This document shows, in pieces, positions 1 through 60,477 of a stretch of DNA of 60,477 nucleotides. Position 1 is the stretch's first letter. The number at the start of each line of letters is the position of its first letter. The position numbers were made by a program, and so were the translations under genes. This DNA is from a virus. Its lineage: Duplodnaviria; Caudoviricetes. The stretch is from positions 1 through 60,477 of the IMG/VR virus record IMGVR_UViG_3300043407_000092. One strand, 5' to 3'. Under the pieces are notes generated by a model that saw only the letters and a list, made by a program, of their open reading frames with translations, searched no databases and was not told where the DNA came from.

Positions 1-127
1 TCGGCAGTTAGTTGGTCGTCAGACAATTTACTGACAACATCAGGCGTAACTTCTCCGCGAGCTAAAACGGCTGGTTGTCGCGTTGTTTGCGGTCTTTGCG
101 TTTCTGTTTGCTGGGCTTGAGCGGCTT
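1..127. repeat. 127-bp exact terminal overlap (identical to 60351-60477); circular assembly
   Basis: Bases 1-127 match 60351-60477 exactly. 127 is a typical assembler k-mer, and a reading frame runs through the join. Confidence 0.95.
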
Positions 128-1931
128 TAGCGGCATTAGCAACTTCCAATACGGTCATGGGTTTAGGAGCACGTCTAAATTTAGATGTAGACGCGGGAGG
201 AGCTGTCAGGTCGACAGATTGATCTGTAACCACGGGCGCAGCAGTTGTAACTACAGGAGCCGCAGTTGTAACTACAGGGGCAGCTGATTGACCGCTGGTA
301 TCTGGAAGAACACCAGCTTGTTGAACTGGGGCTCCAGTTCCGGGGGTAGTTCCACCAACTGTTCCTTGGACAGGAGTAGCTGATCCTGCAGCTCCCACAA
401 CTCCCGGAACGACAGCGCCCCCAGCTCCCACGCCTGCTGAAACTCCTGATCCAGTAGAAATTGGTGCGCTGACATTTGTAGCTCCTTGAGTAGCAGCACT
501 CATAGCGTTGATGATGTTCTGAACCGCAGCCTGTTTTATCAGTTTTTCCGCTTGTTTAAATTTATTTTGTGCAAGCGTTGTACGAACTGAATCTAGTTGT
601 TCTTGAGTTAGCTTAGCTTCCATCAACTTTGGTAGCAGCGTTAAGGTCTTGCCGGATGGGCTAATTCCCATCGAAAGCAGTTGTTCCTCATCTGCGCTAA
701 AAATTTTAGAAGCTGCGGGAGCAGTAGAACCAGCAGAAACAGGAGGCACAAGCGTAGCCCCCAGAGGAGCAGTTCCAGCAGGAGTAGTTCCAGCAGGAGT
801 AGTTAAATCAGTTTCCTGAGTTAGCAACGATGCCGTTGTTGGTTGAGCAGGATTACCAAACGCACTTAAACCAGCAGGATAAGTGCCGCCTAACAAATTA
901 GAATTAGCGTATGGGTTACCCATCAAAGCCGCAGGATCGGTTCCTGTAATGCTTTTGCCAAGAGGGGTTGGAGTATCCGGCTGAGTTAAATCAATAGCGC
1001 CTTCTTCTGGACGACTAGAGCGCAGGCCGCCTACACCACCAAAGACACCACCTAGGGCTGCACCACCAACGAACGAATCCAAGTAGCGCTTATTGGCAGC
1101 TTCATTAAACAGAGTTTCGTTGGGATCAACCGCCATACGACCGGCGTACTGGTTAATAATTTCTTGGCCAGTTTCGCTTAGACCTTCAGCCACAGCAGTA
1201 GTCGGTACAGCCACAGCGAGCCTACGAGCAAGACCGCCTTCACCTTGGATCAGAGGACGCATACCGCGGGCAAGCTGGCCCTCAATACCAAGGGCATTCA
1301 ACGCAGCGTACGGAACACCGCCAAGAGTAGCAGCACCTAGGTTTTCACCGCCGGCATCGCGTTGAGCAGACAAAATATCACCTACAGCACTTGGATAGCT
1401 AGCGCCTACAGCACCCGCAGTACTAGCGGCGGCACGAGTCAAACCCATACGGGCAGCAGTACCGCCAAGGGCTAAGCCACCTGTAAGACCGCCGACAACA
1501 GCTTCACCCAAGTATGGGAGGGACTGAGCAGCAAGACCGCCAATGTAATTTAAACCAGTGCCAATGCCGGTAACATCTCTAAAATCTTCAATACCGCCAA
1601 GGTCACGAGCGCGTTGGGCCGCGTAAGCAGCAGCACTTTCATTAGCCTCACGGCGAGCGTCAAACGCAGCAGCAGTATCAGTAGCACCGACTTTTCGAGC
1701 AACAGCACCGCCAAGGCCCAAAAGGTTTGCTTGATACTGGTCAATACCAGCAGAGACTCGACTACCGGCAAGGCCGCGCCCTGCACCGCTGTAACCTATT
1801 TCAGAAGCGTACGCATCAAGAGATGGGTAGTAACTTTTGTAATTTTGAAACGTACTCTGTAGAATGTCTTCATCAGTTAGATTTTCAAGACCACCGTTAG
1901 CTTTACGAATGTCTGCAATGGAACGTGGCAT
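1..1931 (-). CDS. N-terminal part of giant polyvalent internal virion/ejection protein (~2642 aa in total; continues at 60350-54353)
   Basis: Manual translation from ATG 1931 (MPRSIADIRKANGGLENLTDEDILQ...) is open to base 1 and ends ...KLSDDQLTAE, joining the track ORF MSDDQLTAE. It has Gly/Ala-rich hydrophobic segments and an AEGLSETGQE motif typical of large podophage internal proteins. Confidence 0.9.
   Translation of the reverse strand, partial: MPRSIADIRKANGGLENLTDEDILQSTFQNYKSYYPSLDAYASEIGYSGAGRGLAGSRVSAGIDQYQANLLGLGGAVARKVGATDTAAAFDARREANESAAAYAAQRARDLGGIEDFRDVTGIGTGLNYIGGLAAQSLPYLGEAVVGGLTGGLALGGTAARMGLTRAAASTAGAVGASYPSAVGDILSAQRDAGGENLGAATLGGVPYAALNALGIEGQLARGMRPLIQGEGGLARRLAVAVPTTAVAEGLSETGQEIINQYAGRMAVDPNETLFNEAANKRYLDSFVGGAALGGVFGGVGGLRSSRPEEGAIDLTQPDTPTPLGKSITGTDPAALMGNPYANSNLLGGTYPAGLSAFGNPAQPTTASLLTQETDLTTPAGTTPAGTAPLGATLVPPVSAGSTAPAASKIFSADEEQLLSMGISPSGKTLTLLPKLMEAKLTQEQLDSVRTTLAQNKFKQAEKLIKQAAVQNIINAMSAATQGATNVSAPISTGSGVSAGVGAGGAVVPGVVGAAGSATPVQGTVGGTTPGTGAPVQQAGVLPDTSGQSAAPVVTTAAPVVTTAAPVVTDQSVDLTAPPASTSKFRRAPKPMTVLEVANAAKAAQAQQTETQRPQTTRQPAVLARGEVTPDVVSKLSDDQLTA
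226..283 (-). repeat. 21-nt tandem repeat encoding APVVTTA (about 3 copies) in the giant protein linker
   Basis: gcagttgtaactacagg occurs at 241 and 262, with a degenerate third copy. Confidence 0.8.
272..475 (-). CDS. Nested +1-frame small protein A (67 aa, MSAHQFLLDQEFQQAWELGALSFRELWELQDQLLL...)
   Basis: AAGGAG (482-487) lies 6 nt before ATG 475. The product is helical and protein-like, while the host frame here is low-complexity G/A/V/P/T linker. Confidence 0.7.
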   Translation of the reverse strand: MSAHQFLLDQEFQQAWELGALSFRELWELQDQLLLSKEQLVELPPELEPQFNKLVFFQIPAVNQLPL

Positions 1932-39123: not shown

Positions 39124-40230
39124 ATGAAAGTAACTACCCTAGACAAGGCAAAGGTATCGCTAGTAACACAGCATCCTTTCTTTGCCTCTATCCTTATGAA
39201 GCGACAGCTTATCGAGGATGAAACTATTCCAACAGCAGCAGTAGATCAGCGCAATCAAATCTACATCAACCCTACATGGTTCAACACACTATCGGTTGAC
39301 GAAGTTGTGTTCGTACTAGCACACGAGATCGGCCATGTGATCGGTCAGCATGCGACTCGTCGAGGTGCGCGTCAGCCTAAAAAGTGGAACATTGCAGGCG
39401 ATGCTTGGATTAACGACATGCTCAAGGCAGCAAACATTGGCACGCCCATCAAGGGATGCGTACAGATGGATGGCTCTAAGGATGAGACAGTTGATGAGAT
39501 TTACAACAAGCTCCCCGATAATCCTACAGGTGATGGGCCCGGAGGTACAGGCGACGACATCATCGAGCGTGGCTCACCACTGACCCCAGAAGAAGCTACG
39601 CGCATCGATGCTGAGACTCGTGTCGAGATTGCACAAGCAGCGCAAGCAGCTAAGGCTCAAGGCAAGATGCCCCCTGCATTGGCTAAGATCATTGCTGACT
39701 TGATCGATCCTGGAACACCATGGCACGAGATTCTCGAGCGTTACATGACAAGCTATGTACGTGGAGACTATTCATGGTCACGCCCTAACCGCAGATTCGC
39801 TGACATTGCGTACCTCCCAAGCACAGGCAAGGTAGCTGAAATGGGCGAGGTTGTTATCCAAGTCGACGTATCAGGCTCTATCAGCAAGACAGAGTTGGCT
39901 TATTACAACGGTCACATGGCTCGTATCATTGAGCAGTGCAACCCCGAGCGAGTACACGTCTTGTATGTTGACACTGGTGTATGCAAGCATGAGGTATTCG
40001 AGCAAGGCGAAGAAGTAGCACTAGAGTTTTACTCAGGCGGAGGCACTGACATGGAAGCAGGCTTTGAGTTCCTTGCCAAGGAGGGCATTGAGCCCGAGGT
40101 ATTCGTCTGTCTGACAGATGGTTACACAGACTTTAATGTGGATAAAGCACCTAACTACCCTGTTTTGTGGTGTATTTCTAGTGACATTAACGCTCCTTAC
40201 GGTGAAAATATCCATTTTTCACTGGAGTAA
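39124..40230 (+). CDS. DUF2201-type metallopeptidase + vWA domain protein
   Basis: HEIGH zincin motif, WNIAGD, WSRPNRR, MIDAS DVSGS, GGGTD, LTDGY. Confidence 0.88.
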   Translation: MKVTTLDKAKVSLVTQHPFFASILMKRQLIEDETIPTAAVDQRNQIYINPTWFNTLSVDEVVFVLAHEIGHVIGQHATRRGARQPKKWNIAGDAWINDMLKAANIGTPIKGCVQMDGSKDETVDEIYNKLPDNPTGDGPGGTGDDIIERGSPLTPEEATRIDAETRVEIAQAAQAAKAQGKMPPALAKIIADLIDPGTPWHEILERYMTSYVRGDYSWSRPNRRFADIAYLPSTGKVAEMGEVVIQVDVSGSISKTELAYYNGHMARIIEQCNPERVHVLYVDTGVCKHEVFEQGEEVALEFYSGGGTDMEAGFEFLAKEGIEPEVFVCLTDGYTDFNVDKAPNYPVLWCISSDINAPYGENIHFSLE

Positions 40231-52660: not shown

Positions 52661-53041
52661 TCAGGGGGCTTCGGCCCCTTTTTTCTTTTTGGCTTTTTTA
52701 GCCATACGTTCATCGTGGTGATGTATGCGGTGGCAGTTGGCGCAGAGCACAACGCACTTCTTGACTTCTTCCATGGCACGTTTAAATGCGCGATTTTTAA
52801 TTAGCTTGTTGACAGACTCTTCTTTAGTACTGCTATCTACGTGGTGAAAGTCAAAGGTAGCCGGATGATTCTGTCCGCACTGCACACACGATAATGTAGC
52901 TTTAAAGCTACGCCACTGATCTTTGTATGCCTTGGCCGATGCCCTACTGGCGGCAATTACAATTTCTTTATTGTTGGCGTAGTACGTACTTGCGTACGTT
53001 TTTTGTTTAGTTTGCTTAACAATTTTATCTTTATACGGCAT
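52661..53041 (-). CDS. HNH endonuclease
   Basis: CVQCG...FDFHH...CVVLCANCHRIHH; likely start MPYKD at 53041. Confidence 0.85.
   Translation of the reverse strand: MPYKDKIVKQTKQKTYASTYYANNKEIVIAASRASAKAYKDQWRSFKATLSCVQCGQNHPATFDFHHVDSSTKEESVNKLIKNRAFKRAMEEVKKCVVLCANCHRIHHHDERMAKKAKKKKGAEAP
52663..52690 (+). terminator. Intrinsic terminator at the convergence point of the two arms
   Basis: ggggc-ttcg-gcccc followed by a T tract. Confidence 0.75.
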
Positions 53042-53471
53042 GTTTGATTCGGTACTTCCAGTACAGCGCCGTTTTGAAACCCCAAGGTTGAGATGGCTCA
53101 AACATTTTGAAACCTACAGCTATCAAACTGTTAGCAGATGCAGGGTTTTGGTGGGTATCAGAGATGACCCAATTCATGCCTAATCTCTTGGCCACTTTAA
53201 TACGCTGTCGGATAAGCCGCTTCTGGAGTCCCTGTCCTTGATGAGCTCGTGTAATGCCTGAGCGACATAAGTACATAGTGTCAGACCAACGAGTAGAGGG
53301 GACAATACCACCAAAGCCAACGGCTTCACCGTCTTGCGAGTAAACAACATGCCAGTATCCTTGAGTAATTGGGTAAACTTTGTCTGCAGGAAGACACGCT
53401 TTCTGCAACCAAACGAGTAGTTGTACCACCTCAGGCTGGCGAGTATCGACAGGGACAACGCGGTAGTTCAT
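53031..53471 (-). CDS. GNAT acetyltransferase
   Basis: HQGQGLQKRLI (acetyl-CoA motif A), NPASANSLIAVGF. Confidence 0.88.
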   Translation of the reverse strand: MNYRVVPVDTRQPEVVQLLVWLQKACLPADKVYPITQGYWHVVYSQDGEAVGFGGIVPSTRWSDTMYLCRSGITRAHQGQGLQKRLIRQRIKVAKRLGMNWVISDTHQNPASANSLIAVGFKMFEPSQPWGFKTALYWKYRIKHAV

Positions 53472-54352: not shown

Positions 54353-57300
54353 TTAATCTCCTGCGATTTCTTCAGCTAGTTTACGGGTTCCTTTGGTGTA
54401 CTGCACACCGCCAACCGTCATACGCTCGCGTTTAGCTTGCTCTTGCGGTGCTTTTAGTAAGTCAGAAAACGGCTGCAACTTAAGACCATTTTCTTGTCGA
54501 GCTTTTTGAAGTTTCGTCCACGCCTCACGAGCTGACTGTTTAGCAGCAGCATCGTTGTTCTTAACAGCCTTAACATAGTCGTTTTTAACACGAGTCGTGC
54601 GCTCTTGGAAGTTTTCAGTAACATCACGCATGCGATTTTGTCGCTCATAAGTTACAGTTTCTTTAACAGACGGAACACCAAGACCGGTCAAAATGGCAGA
54701 AATTGCACTAATCTCTTCTGCGGGTAACACTACATCACCGTTACGGCGAGTCATACCTTCAGCAGCTTGGCGTCCAGCTTTGAGCGCGTCGGATACACCC
54801 TTGGGCATAGTGCGCTCAATACCTTTGTAGTAATCGCCACTGAGAATCAACCCCATGCCATCGGCTACACGAGATACCATACCTAACGATGCGCCCCCTA
54901 CTAGAGTGCCAAATGCTTCTGCACGGCCAGCCGTTGTGCTGAGATCGGCGTCACTAAATGGCATGATAGAAAGCATATTGCCGGAGCCAATCTTACCTGA
55001 CAGATCAACGCCTACTAATGTAGGAGCGCCGCGCATAATAAGATCAGACCACTCAGGACCAAGAGCCTTCCGCATATCTGCTGTCAAATCATAAGGGTCG
55101 TCTTCGTCACTGAACGCTTTAAGTAGAAAAGCAACAGCCGCATAACCAGGCAATCCCATCATGCCAGCAAAAACTGCGGAATGACCTAATGAAAAAGCCA
55201 GTGTGCGCATGGCAGCAGCCCGCTCGGCGGGATTTGTAAACGCATCGCGCAACAGTTTGGCGTAGAACGCAATCTGAATTAATTGGAACTTGCGGAACTG
55301 CAGTGCAACCTTACCCCACTGGCTGTTAAAAACGCGAGGTGCATTCATAGCAGTGTAGTCACCATGGGTATCAGTCAGGATATCAGCAGCGTACTGCGTA
55401 GCCTTTTCAGCATCCTTAGTTCGTGCAAACTCCAAACGGTATGCAGCAATGGCCGTAGACAGACGATTGGTAGCTTCCACTTTCTGGACAGCCAGTCGCA
55501 TGCTCTTGTTTAAACGTTGTGCAAACTTACCTAGCTTGCTATCAGCATCAACCTTGTACTCGTTAATTTCAGTGGCTAAGCCAATGTCAATCTGCCCTTG
55601 GTTAACGAGTTTGGTAATTGCTGCGCGTACATCAGCAGGAACTTTTGAAAAGTCAAACTGTTGGTCAAACAACTTAATGTCTTTAAACAGTGGGCCAAGT
55701 TCAGCGTACGCATCAAACAAAGCTTTGCCTGCCTTAGTGTAGTCATGGCGGCCAGCCAGTGCAGGCAGAGACATCATGAATGGCTGTGTCAAATTCTGCA
55801 TGTAATACGCAGGACTAGAAGCCAAGAAGTACTTAGAAGCCGTGTTAGTCAGGCCAGTAATAAAACCATTGCCCTTGGTTTCTAAAGACTCCACATAACG
55901 CTTGGTTAGTTCGTCAAAGATTTCTGATTTGCGTTCGCGGTTTCCGCCTCGGCGATCATTACGCATTTGCTGCAATGCATCTTGGATCAACGGCTCAAAC
56001 TCTACGTTAGCAAGGAAGTTGGCATCAGCGCGACCCTGACGAGTAAACGACTGCAGCATATCCACTTCACCAGCTACCCCACGACGACGCATCTCAGACT
56101 TGCGAGCACTACCCTCTGCCAACGCCTCCAAGTACAACTGGTTAACGATGTTTAACAGCTTGCTGCGACTAGAATCATCGCGTTTGTCAACCGCAGCACG
56201 AATTTTGGTCAACGCTGGCAAAAGCGCCTCACCGCTAAAGGCTTCTTCAAATGCCGTAGCTCGCTTAACAATATCTGGCTTGGTAAATACACCTTGGTCA
56301 GTTAGGTTGTCGCTAAGGGTACGTGCCGCCCACTTGGTATCAACAAAGCTAACATGGTAGTGGTCTGGGTCGGACTCAAGTTGTTTGATACGTTTTGTAT
56401 CTTTAGCAATTTCGGCAGCTTTGTACTCTGCAGATTTACCAATGACAACGTACGCACCGTCACGCTTAATAGGTGCATAGGGTTTACCCTCACGAATAGC
56501 AAACAATGTTTGGAATCGTTTAAGCGTGGCAACTTTTTCAGCTTTAAGCGCTGCTAGTTCCCCTTCAGCTTTTTGTTTTTCCTTGGCATCTGTTGCCGTG
56601 TTAACCATGTTCTGAGCTGCCTGAATCATGGCATCGTACTCAGAGTTTGCAGACTTCAAGACACTTTGTTTCTTTTGAGACAAAATCTTGTCACCATGAG
56701 CAAACACGTTCTTAACAAACTTTTGAGCTTTGGGGCCTAGCTTGTCAAATGCATCACCCATTTTGTCATCGCGGTACTTGCCGTAACCCCACTTCAGAGT
56801 ACGAGTAGACTCAAACAAGAAGTCGTTAACACTACCGCGGCCAGCACCCTTGAACTCTGGTTCAATATCAGCGTAGCCATCTGCAATGCTTTCAATTTCA
56901 CGTTCAAACTCACTGACACGCGCTCTGCGTTGCGACAAAGCATCGGCAAAACTTTGAGCAGAAGTTAGCCCAGCGTCTACGGCACGTTTAATTAAGTCGC
57001 TTGTAAATACAACGTAGTCTAGGCCAGCGCCTGTTACGTCACCTAAAGCAAGAACAATATTGCGTACAGGAGACCGAGAAGCTTTAGGCAGCTTGGCAAT
57101 GTTGTTTTGGATTACCCCTTGGCTCGGCCTTGCCATTCTTAAAATTGCTGGCTGAAACGCCGTCGCCGACACTAAATCAATCTTTGCGCCGTCCCAATTG
57201 CGCCGTGCACGCTCCAAAGCGTGGCTGACATTTAAACCGCGCATACCATCTGTAAAAGGCGCATCGCCCGGGAATGTTACCTTGACGGTAATTTCTTTTT

Positions 57301-60300
57301 TGTACTTTGATTCTTCGTAGGATTTGGGGGCTTTCCCCATGCCCATTAACGAGTCTGGGGCGTTTCCATACGGAACGGCTGAAGTGATCCTTTGGGTTCC
57401 ACGATAGGCTTGAACTTGCGAGGATTCTGCTGTAGTTGCTGCGCCCGTTTGAGCATCTGCGCCACCTTTGTTTTGTTTTGCGGTTTCATCACTAGCCTCC
57501 ATAAAATCATAAGTAGCCGGTAGGTTATCTGCCAAATAGGCATTGCCTTCACGGGTGTTGTAAAAAGCCCAAAGCTGCGCAAAGACTTCCATGCGAGTCT
57601 CGTCAGCACTCATATTCTTAGTGTCGTTTCGGCTGTGGTCGAGAGGGTAGCCCATAGACCTTGTAAAGTCTGAATCTGGATTTTCAGCCATGTGAGTCAT
57701 AATTTCAGACACCACAGAACCCATAGGTTTAACAACACCTTTTTGAATAGTCAGATTAAACTCAGGCAGGCCAGAAAAAATACCACCTGTTGTAAACGCA
57801 GCATCTGCAATGTGGCCCAGCTCGTGATGAATAGCCCAGTTAGCTGCATCAGAATTAACCAGCATGCCAGAACGTACTGCCAAAGTCTGTTTACCGTCCA
57901 CCATCATAATGGCAGCGTCAAAGTCAACAGTGTCTGGGGCAACCATCCACAACTCAACGTCATCAATTACTTGACGAAGATCGTTATTTTCATAATGACT
58001 TAGCGCACTTTCAACGCCGGGAAATCTGCGCAGGCTAGCCTCGTCAGTAATTTGGCCATCAAACTTTAATGTTCCGGCAGTAACTTCAACCGTGTCGCCT
58101 TTAGTAAGACGTAAAACGCGGTTAACCGCTACATCAATAGTTTCTTCTTTACCCACTACATCAGCAGCTGCAACGCCTTTAGCGCCTTGGCCATCTTCAG
58201 TACGGGTCTCTGTGCGGGTCTCGGCAGCAAACATCTGAGCTGCTTGTTCTTGTGCATCAGGCACGACAAAAACCATACCGCCATCAAGATTGGCAATGTT
58301 GGGAGCAATCTCGTTAATAAAGGTGTCATGCTTGGTATTGATACAGCCATAGCTAACACGGTTGTCTGCTGCTGTAGGAGTATCTAATCGACCTAAACGA
58401 TTCTCAGACGGTGTGCTAGTGTCTGCAGCGTGGATGGCAATGTAGCCCGTGTAGTCTTTAGACTCAACCAAGATTAACTCTTGGCCACCAGCGTACGTAG
58501 ATGGTCTAGCTTTAAGAGTAAATTTACCAGCAGGGGTAACTTTTGCGCCGCCTTCCAAAGAAGACACAGCTTCCATCACGTCACCAGTATCTTTGCCGTA
58601 CAGCGTAGGGTCAGACAAAGCGTGTGAGCCATCTTCTTTAAAGATATGCAGCATGCCGTTTGGCTTGTCGGCAACCATAAACCATTTACCAGACTTCATT
58701 GCCACAGGAGCCATGGCTTCATACACGCTTTGAGCAGTCGGTGACATTTGAGCTTTAGCTACAGCAGGTACGGCTTGCGTTACTTCAATGGTCTGTTCAA
58801 ATGTTTTAGCAACGTTAAGAGCAAACGCATCTTTGGTAATGTTCGGGTTGAACACAATACCCATGGCAAGTACGCCTTCGGCCATTGATTTGATGATGCT
58901 ACGAATAGCACCTGCAACAGCTTCTGCACCTTGAGTAACATACTTGGTAATGTCCTCTTGTACTTTGCGTAAGAACTCAGCGCTGTCACGCTTCTCACCA
59001 TAGTGCTTTTCAAGACGATCAATCTGAGGCGCTGGTAGCGCGGCAACCTGTTGGGTAACCTGCTCATCAATGATGCGAGTTTCACCTTCAATGGTGACTG
59101 GCTCTTTAGTCAGCAACTGCTGCAAGCCCATCTCTTTGGCAACTGAGGGTTTACCATTAGTACGGACAGCTAAGTCAGTCAGGTAACCTTGCTCAAGCTT
59201 GTTTAACTGCTCGTACGGAACTAAGCCGGGTGTCTTAGCAGAAAGGTTTTCCCACAGGGCTTTGCCTCTATCTATTTGCTCTTCGGCTTGGCCTTGGGTT
59301 TGACCTTTGCTGGCAGGTTTTTCGGCACGCCGTACTTGGCCGCCCACTCTTTTGCCACCTTTGGTTTCTGACTGAACAGGTACGAGCGCTGTGCTTGTGA
59401 CTTGAACGGCATTTGTTTTCTCCAGTTTAGCCATCTGGACAGACAGCTCTTTTGTTTGACCGCTTTGAAAATCTACGGTTACGGTAGTTGCATCTCCGTC
59501 GCCAGAAAAACTTCTAACAATCCCAGTACCCAACTTGGGGTTTACTACAGTGTCGCCAACTTCAAAACCTTTGCGGTCAGCAGCGCGTTTAGCAGCGGCC
59601 TTAGCACGAAGTTTTTCAGCTTCAGCTTTTTTGGCGTCATCAGCATTGTTAACAGAAATTGATTCTGGCTCGGCCTCTTTAGCTGCTGCAACTAAATCAA
59701 CTTCACCATCCGTGTCTCCCAAACCAGCAGTTTCTTTAACTGCTGCTTGAGCGCGTTTTTCAACGGCGCGAACTTTGACAAGTTGTTCTGCCAATTTAGC
59801 ATTGAGCTCTTTTAGTTTGGCTTCATCAGTCTCAGCAGCCAAGGCTTCTAGTGTGGCATCAATTTCTTTTTGGAGCTTAGTAAAGCCTTCAACTTCAGAA
59901 GTACCAGCACCAGCAGTGTTTACAATATTTTCTAAGCCGCCCTCAATAGCTTCACTTTCACTAATTGCTGACGGTTGATTTTGCCCAAAAATCTCACGCT
60001 CAACGGCTGAACCTGTTACATCTTGTTCAAGTGGCGTAAATGCGTTTTTAATCTGCTCATCTGTTAGACCCAATTCGGTTCTGGCTTGCGCAACGCGAGC
60101 GGCACGAGCTTCAGCACCTGTAGCCCCTGCAATCTTCTGTATGGAAGAGCGAGTCAAACCATACTTGGCAGCAGCATTAGGCTCAGACATACCCATGCCA
60201 ATAACATCAAAGATAATATCGCCGTTGCGCTCACCAAAAATACGTTGTAACAAAACTTGACGTTCGTCCACAACAGGTGGATTACTGCGTTTAGTCTGTT

Positions 60301-60477
60301 CATCCTGCAACAACTTATATTCAGCGTCGCTAATGTTGATGTTTGTTAATTCGGCAGTTAGTTGGTCGTCAGACAATTTACTGACAACATCAGGCGTAAC
60401 TTCTCCGCGAGCTAAAACGGCTGGTTGTCGCGTTGTTTGCGGTCTTTGCGTTTCTGTTTGCTGGGCTTGAGCGGCTT
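54353..60477 (-). CDS. C-terminal part of giant polyvalent protein (HTH-like, Tudor, L,D-transpeptidase-like, zincin and PLxRFG domains)
   Basis: 2007-aa track ORF whose frame stays open through the junction to ATG 1931. Motifs: GDTVVNPKLGTG, IAIH...SYGCIN, HELGH, PYAPIKRDG. Confidence 0.9.
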   Translation of the reverse strand, partial: AAQAQQTETQRPQTTRQPAVLARGEVTPDVVSKLSDDQLTAELTNINISDAEYKLLQDEQTKRSNPPVVDERQVLLQRIFGERNGDIIFDVIGMGMSEPNAAAKYGLTRSSIQKIAGATGAEARAARVAQARTELGLTDEQIKNAFTPLEQDVTGSAVEREIFGQNQPSAISESEAIEGGLENIVNTAGAGTSEVEGFTKLQKEIDATLEALAAETDEAKLKELNAKLAEQLVKVRAVEKRAQAAVKETAGLGDTDGEVDLVAAAKEAEPESISVNNADDAKKAEAEKLRAKAAAKRAADRKGFEVGDTVVNPKLGTGIVRSFSGDGDATTVTVDFQSGQTKELSVQMAKLEKTNAVQVTSTALVPVQSETKGGKRVGGQVRRAEKPASKGQTQGQAEEQIDRGKALWENLSAKTPGLVPYEQLNKLEQGYLTDLAVRTNGKPSVAKEMGLQQLLTKEPVTIEGETRIIDEQVTQQVAALPAPQIDRLEKHYGEKRDSAEFLRKVQEDITKYVTQGAEAVAGAIRSIIKSMAEGVLAMGIVFNPNITKDAFALNVAKTFEQTIEVTQAVPAVAKAQMSPTAQSVYEAMAPVAMKSGKWFMVADKPNGMLHIFKEDGSHALSDPTLYGKDTGDVMEAVSSLEGGAKVTPAGKFTLKARPSTYAGGQELILVESKDYTGYIAIHAADTSTPSENRLGRLDTPTAADNRVSYGCINTKHDTFINEIAPNIANLDGGMVFVVPDAQEQAAQMFAAETRTETRTEDGQGAKGVAAADVVGKEETIDVAVNRVLRLTKGDTVEVTAGTLKFDGQITDEASLRRFPGVESALSHYENNDLRQVIDDVELWMVAPDTVDFDAAIMMVDGKQTLAVRSGMLVNSDAANWAIHHELGHIADAAFTTGGIFSGLPEFNLTIQKGVVKPMGSVVSEIMTHMAENPDSDFTRSMGYPLDHSRNDTKNMSADETRMEVFAQLWAFYNTREGNAYLADNLPATYDFMEASDETAKQNKGGADAQTGAATTAESSQVQAYRGTQRITSAVPYGNAPDSLMGMGKAPKSYEESKYKKEITVKVTFPGDAPFTDGMRGLNVSHALERARRNWDGAKIDLVSATAFQPAILRMARPSQGVIQNNIAKLPKASRSPVRNIVLALGDVTGAGLDYVVFTSDLIKRAVDAGLTSAQSFADALSQRRARVSEFEREIESIADGYADIEPEFKGAGRGSVNDFLFESTRTLKWGYGKYRDDKMGDAFDKLGPKAQKFVKNVFAHGDKILSQKKQSVLKSANSEYDAMIQAAQNMVNTATDAKEKQKAEGELAALKAEKVATLKRFQTLFAIREGKPYAPIKRDGAYVVIGKSAEYKAAEIAKDTKRIKQLESDPDHYHVSFVDTKWAARTLSDNLTDQGVFTKPDIVKRATAFEEAFSGEALLPALTKIRAAVDKRDDSSRSKLLNIVNQLYLEALAEGSARKSEMRRRGVAGEVDMLQSFTRQGRADANFLANVEFEPLIQDALQQMRNDRRGGNRERKSEIFDELTKRYVESLETKGNGFITGLTNTASKYFLASSPAYYMQNLTQPFMMSLPALAGRHDYTKAGKALFDAYAELGPLFKDIKLFDQQFDFSKVPADVRAAITKLVNQGQIDIGLATEINEYKVDADSKLGKFAQRLNKSMRLAVQKVEATNRLSTAIAAYRLEFARTKDAEKATQYAADILTDTHGDYTAMNAPRVFNSQWGKVALQFRKFQLIQIAFYAKLLRDAFTNPAERAAAMRTLAFSLGHSAVFAGMMGLPGYAAVAFLLKAFSDEDDPYDLTADMRKALGPEWSDLIMRGAPTLVGVDLSGKIGSGNMLSIMPFSDADLSTTAGRAEAFGTLVGGASLGMVSRVADGMGLILSGDYYKGIERTMPKGVSDALKAGRQAAEGMTRRNGDVVLPAEEISAISAILTGLGVPSVKETVTYERQNRMRDVTENFQERTTRVKNDYVKAVKNNDAAAKQSAREAWTKLQKARQENGLKLQPFSDLLKAPQEQAKRERMTVGGVQYTKGTRKLAEEIAGD
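57346..57489 (-). CDS. Nested +1-frame small protein C (47 aa, MKPQNKTKVAQMLKRAQQLQQNPRKFKP...)
   Basis: GGAGG (57496-57500) lies 6 nt before ATG 57489, right after the zincin domain. Confidence 0.55.
   Translation of the reverse strand: MKPQNKTKVAQMLKRAQQLQQNPRKFKPIVEPKGSLQPFRMETPQTR
59272..59412 (-). CDS. Nested +1-frame small basic protein B (46 aa, MPFKSQAQRSYLFSQKPKVAKEWAAKYG...)
   Basis: GGAG (59420-59423) lies 7 nt before ATG 59412. The sequence resembles free-standing small phage proteins beginning MPFKS.AQR..L...P.VAK.W. Confidence 0.75.
   Translation of the reverse strand: MPFKSQAQRSYLFSQKPKVAKEWAAKYGVPKNLPAKVKPKAKPKSK
60351..60477. repeat. 127-bp terminal overlap (copy of 1-127)
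   Basis: Exact identity with the window start. Confidence 0.95.

Follow-up and report, generated by a model that had tools for sequence, protein, structure and literature searches.

In its architecture, the gene studied here has a described parallel in the two-component spanins (lambda Rz/Rz1), whose genes occur in embedded, overlapped, and separated arrangements. PMC6139136 reports that the embedded spanin gene is missed by gene callers and that the overlap falls on a tolerant part of the host gene, and it discusses an origin in which the larger gene extended over a separate small gene. In classical overprinting of the phiX174 type (reviews PMC8227390 and PMC3494269), the embedded frame is the young and taxonomically restricted one. 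The product, for its part, can be compared with the disruptin gp28 of phage phiKT, a peptide of 56 amino acids with a charge of +7 and amphipathic helices, which reportedly has no homologues (bioRxiv 10.1101/515445). Here, we describe a 46-residue open reading frame (ORF) in the virus record IMGVR_UViG_3300043407_000092 (Duplodnaviria; Caudoviricetes), a complete record whose whole stretch of 60,477 bp is called the window below. This ORF lies in the +1 frame of a giant late gene and is very probably a genuine protein-coding gene, the product of which belongs to a family of small basic phage proteins that also exist as separate genes.

A Small Gene Nested in a Giant Late Gene

The nested gene and the elements next to its start are located as follows:

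59272..59412, minus strand: nested small gene (P0001), with its ATG at 59412-59410, 46 codons, and its stop at 59274-59272
59420-59423, minus strand: Shine-Dalgarno-like GGAG, provided by the Leu-Glu codons of the host gene and ending 7 nt before the ATG
59417..59560, minus strand: Tudor-like segment of the host protein (P0002 residues 306-353), directly upstream of the nested start

A first inspection of the letters alone, here called the sequence-only reading, had proposed a 46-residue ORF in the +1 frame without giving its strand. The ORF exists as described, with an identical translation, on the minus strand. Its product, MPFKSQAQRSYLFSQKPKVAKEWAAKYGVPKNLPAKVKPKAKPKSK, contains 12 Lys, 1 Arg, and 1 Glu, for a net charge of about +12. 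The ORF is wholly contained in the host frame, starts near host residue 956-959, and is read in the +1 frame relative to it (host CTG GAG AAA ACA AAT GCC GTT; small gene ATG CCG TTC). Homologous giants align on both flanks of the overlap, and the larger ORF has its own start upstream of the small one.

The Shine-Dalgarno (SD) sequence was said to be formed by the Leu-Glu-Lys codons that end a Tudor domain. The GGAG does span the Leu-Glu codons; the Tudor label, on the other hand, corresponds to a sub-threshold match to Pfam PF21196 (PcrA_UvrD_tudor; E = 0.0091, 16.3 bits for a cut-off of 23.9), which extends over the full model (1-48 of 48), its last residue being the Lys of Leu-Glu-Lys. GGAG or AGGAG is found at the same site in all six window-type giants shown and in locus L067. 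The Tudor-like segment lies directly upstream of the small ORF in the window and in loci L004, L006, and L066 and is absent from L005 and L007, both of which retain the nested ORF with an AGGAG formed by other host codons, indicating that the SD is kept independently of the Tudor-like segment. More generally, an SD-like motif precedes 28 of the 41 larger ORFs of the window phage.

Ribosomes would initiate internally at the GGAG(7 nt)ATG of the small gene on the polycistronic late mRNA, in which case a promoter of its own would not be needed. A consensus scan of the minus strand between 58900 and 60000 found no sigma-70-like promoter, which is compatible with internal initiation and proves nothing. 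Five SD+ATG sites occur in the giant, every one of them in the +1 frame, and ORFs of 46-67 codons follow from four. Because such ORFs are common in the giant, the nested ORF is by itself not beyond chance; its homology and its substitution pattern are.

The Nested Peptide Belongs to a Widespread Family

A word-indexed search with the nested peptide returned ten small proteins (42-80 aa) with 63-89% identity and E-values down to 6.5e-18. By using a pattern scan of IMG/VR, we then obtained 287 tblastn-confirmed relatives in viral contigs, the best 80 of which were examined as loci. An alignment of 71 non-identical members (A2) served as a profile that was run on 1.84 billion representatives of clusters at 50% identity and matched 4,415 of them at E <= 1e-3, including 968 at E <= 1e-10. 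Among the best 150 matches, 97 are proteins of less than 100 aa and 53 are proteins of 100-980 aa that carry the module at their N-terminus; the match begins at residue 1 of the target in 136 cases, at residues 2-3 in 3, and at residues 9-37 in 11. The family thus exists in three forms: as a separate gene, as the N-terminal ~40 residues of a longer protein, and embedded in the +1 frame of a large gene. The long N-terminal fusions were also sought in viral contigs (queries P0014 and P0162), where just further short members were recovered.

The N-terminus of the family is nearly invariant (M-P-F-K-S-x-A-Q). All invariant columns (M1, P2, F3, Q8, P17, and A20) are present in the window peptide, as is the basic tail, and the start codon is ATG in 79 of the 80 viral loci and GTG in the remaining one. 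The likeness to free-standing small basic phage proteins, which the sequence-only reading had advanced, is borne out: significant matches to stand-alone phage genes were obtained, and separate homologues occur in 51 of the 80 viral loci and in cultured phages. The existence of homologues as separate genes in many phages indicates that the nesting is real.

Among GenBank phages, the family is rare and occurs as separate genes, and no tblastn match was found there to a member from the class nested in ORFs of ~405 aa described below. The member of phage 023Pt_psg01 is an annotated coding sequence of 39 aa, and gene 48 of Streptomyces phage FlowerPower (72 aa) is another member, also present in six related records. 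Stand-alone copies are also missed by annotation in some cultured phages: in Synechococcus phage S-CBS2 (L001, 4001-4111) an unannotated member lies in an intergenic gap, its ATG overlapping the stop of gp045, and phage C75C1 (L002, 4001-4105) likewise has an unannotated member ORF in an intergenic gap.

As for known families, 54 of the 71 aligned members match PHROG 1375 (function unknown), with a best E-value of 2.3e-7. When this PHROG was searched against the single genome, the nested peptide was the sole match in the window (E = 0.003). No Pfam family matched the window peptide or a single one of the 71 aligned sequences. In a search of the literature, which covered the texts of a collection of papers, neither the motif, nor DUF3008, nor small genes embedded within genes of virion proteins led to a report of the family or of its nesting.

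Nested and Separate Copies

The 80 viral loci fall into three classes. In 19, the small ORF is nested in open frames of 1,248-3,185 codons; in 10, it is nested in ORFs of ~405 aa whose start lies ~50 codons upstream; in the other 51, the gene is separate. This last class comprises 42 loci without a large same-strand frame covering the gene and 9 loci in which the neighboring frame is open over 121-451 codons without an upstream start. The latter were counted as separate because stops occur just upstream or because the next gene begins at the end of the small gene. The frame relation never varies among the 29 nested loci: relative to its host, the small ORF is always +1. The sequence-only reading had suggested looking behind NAVQ/NAIQ-type linkers of other giant proteins for the same hidden ORF, and it is indeed present behind a host-frame [D/N]A[V/I]Q in 19 other giants and in the ten ~405-aa ORFs. 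Independent homologues and conservation of the +1 frame, the absence of which that reading had taken as arguing against it, were thus both found, in the form of separate copies and of a conserved small frame.

The host genes themselves are diverse and have diverged further than their guest. Seven of the 19 other giants (L004-L007, L043, L066, and L067) show BLAST similarity to the giant of the window, and those of L016, L022, and L047 have no PHROG or Pfam family in common with it. The window-type giants are preceded by homologues of three window genes, p138, the ejection protein, and p546. Six of ten other, dissimilar giants (L013, L014, L022, L040, L048, and L081) are preceded by a protein of 550-700 aa belonging to phrog_35506, which suggests that the phrog_35506 gene and its giant form a conserved ejection-module synteny comparable to p546 and the giant of the window. 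Given these recurring upstream partners, all host giants seem to occupy the same position, that of an internal core or ejection protein. The ~405-aa hosts are acidic proteins encoded after the portal gene in 10 of 10 loci and before a gene similar to that of the major capsid protein (MCP) in 9 of 10, the tenth contig ending there; they sit at the scaffold position.

For 35 separate copies, we recorded the nearest large upstream ORFs, among which portal and terminase PHROGs were the commonest annotated families, the tally being made of counts per family and not per locus. Typing of neighbors by iterative searches with hidden Markov models (three seeds, for portal, large terminase subunit, and MCP) classified a minority of them. 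The two arrangements can also be found around homologous giants: in L033 (6001-6150), the small gene is separate and lies 10 nt past the stop of the giant, and in L047 (6001-6165), it is embedded ~716 codons into the giant. These two giants are homologous (E = 8e-104), and their small peptides group together with a support of 95% in the Shimodaira-Hasegawa-like approximate likelihood ratio test (SH-aLRT).

Selection Acts on the Small Frame

The ratio of nonsynonymous to synonymous proportions (pN/pS; Nei-Gojobori proportions) was compared between the two frames of the overlap in three sets of nested loci. It was 0.41 for the small frame versus 1.39 for the host frame in the window-type giants taken together with L016 (n = 7), 0.43 versus 1.36 in the other giants (n = 12), and 0.29 versus 1.03 in the ~405-aa class (n = 10). 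Across the first 26-34 codons, which align without gaps, pairwise identity averaged 62-81% in the small frame versus 45-69% in the host frame, and the most variable nucleotide position was the third position of the small frame, that is, the first of the host. In a codon alignment of six homologous giants, differences were distributed over host codon positions 1/2/3 as 45/31/25% in the overlap and as 30/26/44% in the rest of the giant, and the overlap has the lowest share of position-3 differences among 124 sliding windows along the gene. Purifying selection on the embedded frame is thus not accounted for by the host frame; where the two overlap, selection preserves the small reading, and the host's is simply kept open.

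That the host frame is genuinely kept open in nested loci is also what codon usage indicates. The Phe3 codon is TTC in 29 of 29 nested loci, including those of a class at 35% GC, and TTT in 23 of 41 separate loci; TTC is kept in the former because TTT followed by AAR would create a TAA in the host frame. In 39 of the 41 separate loci, the equivalent of the host frame contains stops. As controls, two other +1-frame ORFs of the giant with an SD and an ATG (57346-57489, 47 codons, and 56302-56478, 58 codons, both on the minus strand) turned out to be disrupted or not conserved in related giants. Contigs from four lake metatranscriptome runs contain close relatives of the region, which documents presence in RNA libraries and neither proven transcription, with its strand and ends, nor translation; parts left uncovered carry no meaning. 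Four variants fall within the ORF in these contigs; three are silent in the small frame and change a host residue, and one does the reverse. As a side observation on its occurrence, at least half of the sampled words of window positions 58400-60300 are found in ten DNA runs labelled as freshwater, lake-water, or (one) fungus metagenome, four of which may be the source of the record, and small shares of them occur in lake metatranscriptome runs.

Could the nested ORF be a decaying relic or a chance open frame, left when a giant fused across a small gene that is no longer expressed? As noted above, +1-frame ORFs of similar size are common in the giant, and the case for translation is indirect. 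However, the ATG, the open frame, and the invariant N-terminus are kept in 29 of 29 embedded copies across hosts that can no longer be aligned, the low pN/pS of the small frame (0.29-0.43) was obtained among nested copies alone, the GGAG is retained in the window-type group, and control ORFs decay. A relic or chance frame is thus very improbable. Even less credit can be given to the idea that the conserved element is the linker motif of the host frame ([D/N]A[V/I]Q..S..V.V...) or an mRNA signal, of which the small ORF would be a by-product. The host-frame translation also appears conserved across giants, although less than the small frame, and the nested loci were collected with the small peptide as query, so that giants with the motif and a broken small frame, of which none is among the 29, could not appear. 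On the other hand, the small protein is still conserved in the separate copies whose host-equivalent frame is closed by stops, the host frame of the overlap combines a pN/pS of at least 1 with the gene's lowest third-position variability, and family matches begin at residue 1 of independently called proteins. The identical frame relation in 29 of 29 nested loci would also fit a programmed +1 ribosomal frameshift, by which one mRNA would yield both the giant and, rather than a free 46-aa protein, a truncated N-terminal fragment of the giant with a basic tail. This is likewise very improbable in view of the conserved ATG exactly at the start of the conserved sequence, of the motif at residue 1 in separate genes and N-terminal fusions, and of an SD at optimal spacing, and no slippery or shift-prone motif was noticed, no search for one having been made.

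Some observations weigh against reading the ORF as a genuine embedded gene. Its translation is deduced from sequence, and the RNA-library contigs attest to presence alone, DNA being possible in such libraries. AT-rich nested classes lack a recognizable SD, indicating that the mechanism of initiation is not uniform. The peptide of the window matches PHROG 1375 weakly when the whole library is searched (E = 0.047), and it was not among the matches at E <= 0.01 in the scan of the 71 members. Because of this weak match, its membership is based mainly on direct homologues, and it is 39-96% identical to relatives that do match PHROG 1375. Taken together with the distribution of the family and with the substitution pattern, these points leave a genuine gene, embedded in the +1 frame of the giant, as a very probable interpretation.

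The Host Gene and Its Surroundings

The host giant and the ends of the record are arranged as follows:

54353..60350, minus strand: 3' part of the host giant (the open frame itself spans 54353..60475 and leaves the right end of the window)
1..1931, minus strand: 5' part of the host giant, with its ATG at 1931; the frame continues over the record ends
1-127 = 60351-60477: direct terminal repeat of the record

Joined across this 127-bp direct terminal repeat, the host ORF has 2,645 codons from stop to stop and encodes a virion protein of 2,642 aa counted from the ATG. Because it crosses the record ends, any annotation of the linear record cuts this 2,642-aa gene into two open-ended pieces. The C-terminal 750 residues of the giant match the DarB-like PHROG 10089 (E = 1.4e-57), and the protein also carries a weak YkuD-like stretch and an HExxH motif. 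The giant is the final gene of a podovirus-like late operon on the minus strand, which encodes terminase, portal, major head protein, tail fibres, internal virion protein, and ejection protein, and it lies behind the internal-virion and ejection genes. The replication genes of the phage are on the plus strand. Two genes resemble HNH endonucleases, one just downstream of the 3' end of the giant (52661-53471, minus strand) and one inside the replication module (39124-40230, plus strand).

A second +1-frame candidate was noticed in the same giant at 272-499 (minus strand), through the second-lowest share of differences at the host third position. It has 75 codons from a GTG or 67 from the ATG at 475, with AGGA 7 nt upstream of this ATG. 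Its peptide and stop are conserved in the window and in L004-L007 and not in L066, and the host frame over it is a stretch rich in Gly, Val, Ala, and Pro. Just three close homologues were found (69-94% identity), all on short contigs, which makes this candidate lineage-specific. It probably corresponds to the "nested gene A" of the sequence-only reading.

Origin of the Embedded Copies

The small gene has a far wider distribution than any host gene and is found as a separate gene beside homologous giants, which points to large genes having probably extended or fused across an older, pre-existing small gene. In that case, the younger and tolerant frame would be the one that the host reads as its "linker" [D/N]A[V/I]Q..., in a reverse of classical overprinting. 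Two points weaken this scenario: the direction, host over guest, follows from distribution and not from a rooted tree, and a tree built from the 71 peptides has little resolution (49 columns, with 9 of 68 branches starred). Being too short to date or count origins reliably, this tree was used for the minimum number of state changes and for clustering relative to shuffles. It requires at least five changes between the nested and separate states, versus a mean of 22.8 and a minimum of 16 for shuffled labels, and 24 of the 29 nested peptides lie on one side of a branch with 86% SH-aLRT support. Most embedded copies may therefore descend from few events, yet from more than one. The giant of L066 (6001-6159) is homologous to that of the window, but the peptide embedded in it represents another subtype, one placed with separate copies; this mismatch could reflect either an exchange of modules or the poor resolution of the tree.

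A broader scenario, which we put forward only tentatively, is that the head-interior and DNA-ejection apparatus has in the MPFKS module an ancient partner or tag that is portable and was repeatedly engulfed by large genes, those of giant ejection proteins and of scaffold-position proteins, reading through it in the -1 frame.

Structure and Possible Function

An AlphaFold2 model built from the 71-row alignment has a mean predicted local distance difference test score of 83.8 and consists of two short helices (residues 6-15 and 17-27) followed by an extended Lys/Pro tail. In the longer proteins that start with the module, the C-terminal parts are varied: DUF5661 was found in 3 of 10 scanned, and others contain Gly-zipper-like hydrophobic stretches, one HExxH, or long regions rich in Gly, Ala, and Gln.

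The small protein might be an accessory of the head-interior or DNA-ejection apparatus, a role that we consider possible rather than probable. It is suggested by the genomic company of the gene (the portal-scaffold region, or giant ejection proteins in which it is embedded or to which it is adjacent), by a strong positive charge opposite acidic hosts, and by the use of the peptide as an N-terminal module. The Lys/Pro-rich tail would attach to DNA or to acidic internal proteins, with the conserved two-helix N-terminal module docking onto a conserved partner; this would be why the small protein is made together with the giant ejection protein or, elsewhere, with portal and scaffold. A complex prediction for the window portal (alignment A4) and the small protein (A2) returned a score of 0.00, which, as a run without controls, gives no answer and speaks neither for nor against binding.

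Structure and context also provide arguments on the other side. A search of PDB sequences with the family profile gave nothing at E <= 10, Foldseek found nothing in PDB at E <= 0.001 with the AlphaFold2 model, matches among BFVD structures were to uncharacterised family members only, and to these is added the absence of any Pfam match among the 71 members. Nor is the genomic context uniform, since the FlowerPower member sits between a "peptidase" and a holin and since the 35 upstream neighbors include many proteins of unknown function and three glycosyltransferases.

Two other functions can be envisaged. In the first, the protein would be an assembly-only factor, or a docking tag that binds portal or scaffold in the procapsid and loads internal cargo, rather than a DNA-binding component of the virion. 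Its gene often comes right after that of the portal and, in all ten loci of one class, lies embedded in the scaffold-position gene, and the module forms the N-terminus of longer proteins of varied C-terminal make-up, an arrangement that we take to be reminiscent of portal-associated cargo carriers. However, the portals concerned belong to very different families (phrog_156, 1216, 332, and 6547), across which the partner would need to be conserved, and family or fold comparisons lend the idea no support, which leaves it unlikely. More improbable still is a cationic helical lysis peptide of the disruptin kind, damaging the outer membrane late in infection. The small size, the charge of about +12, the predicted helical N-terminal half, the place of the FlowerPower member beside a holin, and the position of the host giant as last late gene are all in agreement with such a role. 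Yet most copies are found in head and packaging modules (portal, scaffold position, and terminase) or in or beside giant ejection proteins, the invariant N-terminus is unexpected for a membrane-active peptide, the module also forms the N-terminus of proteins of up to 980 aa, and one phage with a member infects a Gram-positive host, which lacks an outer membrane. An accessory of the head interior or of DNA ejection thus stays our preferred, if hesitant, proposal.

Significance

Because gene callers forbid fully nested genes, the embedded protein is invisible in annotation. The locus brings to light one conserved small protein, always in the same frame, within several large hosts that are no longer similar to one another. 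With homologous embedded, adjacent, and fused forms all available, it constitutes a clean natural system for the study of dual coding. It also draws attention to a very abundant small protein of unknown function that is tied to the giant ejection proteins and to the portal-scaffold region of podovirus-like phages, a link that directs experiments to where its role may lie.

Further implications depend on the readings proposed above. If the inferred origin is true, a large phage protein can gain length by fusion across a small gene that nonetheless survives. If the portable-module scenario is true, tailed phages possess, besides the spanins, a second widespread gene architecture with embedded and separated forms, this time by "reverse overprinting", in which the host linker is the new frame and the guest the old gene. 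Hundreds to thousands of uncultured phage genomes would then contain an unannotated, co-translated small protein inside their largest virion gene.

Comparison with Known Systems

Among described families, PHROG 1375 is the nearest to the nested protein. Its members are likewise small and share the N-terminal motif, and the majority of the aligned members match it, as indicated above; it differs in giving no function and, apparently, in not recording the embedding of members inside other genes. A likeness to DUF3008 (PF11450) found no support in profile searches: none of the 71 members matches it at E <= 1, and nothing in the window does at E <= 10. In the ESM Atlas, the nearest named cluster to a family member used as query is one of viral proteins labelled DUF3008 (score 0.81), with 37% of its members carrying the family, and this is a lead only.

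The likeness to phiKT gp28 is that both are small, highly cationic, helical peptides of late phage genes; there is, however, no detectable homology, and the nested protein differs in its genomic context and in its invariant N-terminus. With classical overprinting, the locus shares the encoding of two proteins by one stretch of DNA and an asymmetric selection between the frames, but in this case wide distribution (4,415 clusters) is a trait of the embedded gene, and it is the host's reading that looks like the newcomer.

The closest parallel in architecture is provided by the embedded spanins. In both systems (PMC6139136 for the spanins), a larger late gene fully contains a small one that is read from the same strand in a different frame, and embedded copies coexist with separated ones. 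The overlap is placed on a tolerant, linker-like region of the host, and gene callers routinely miss the small gene. The identity of the protein as an o-spanin was rejected, its 46 residues containing no Cys, no signal sequence, and no lipobox. The nested protein thus differs from the embedded spanins in having no lipoprotein signal, Cys, or membrane topology, and its hosts are not i-spanins but giant ejection proteins or scaffold-position proteins, one family being found in several unrelated hosts.

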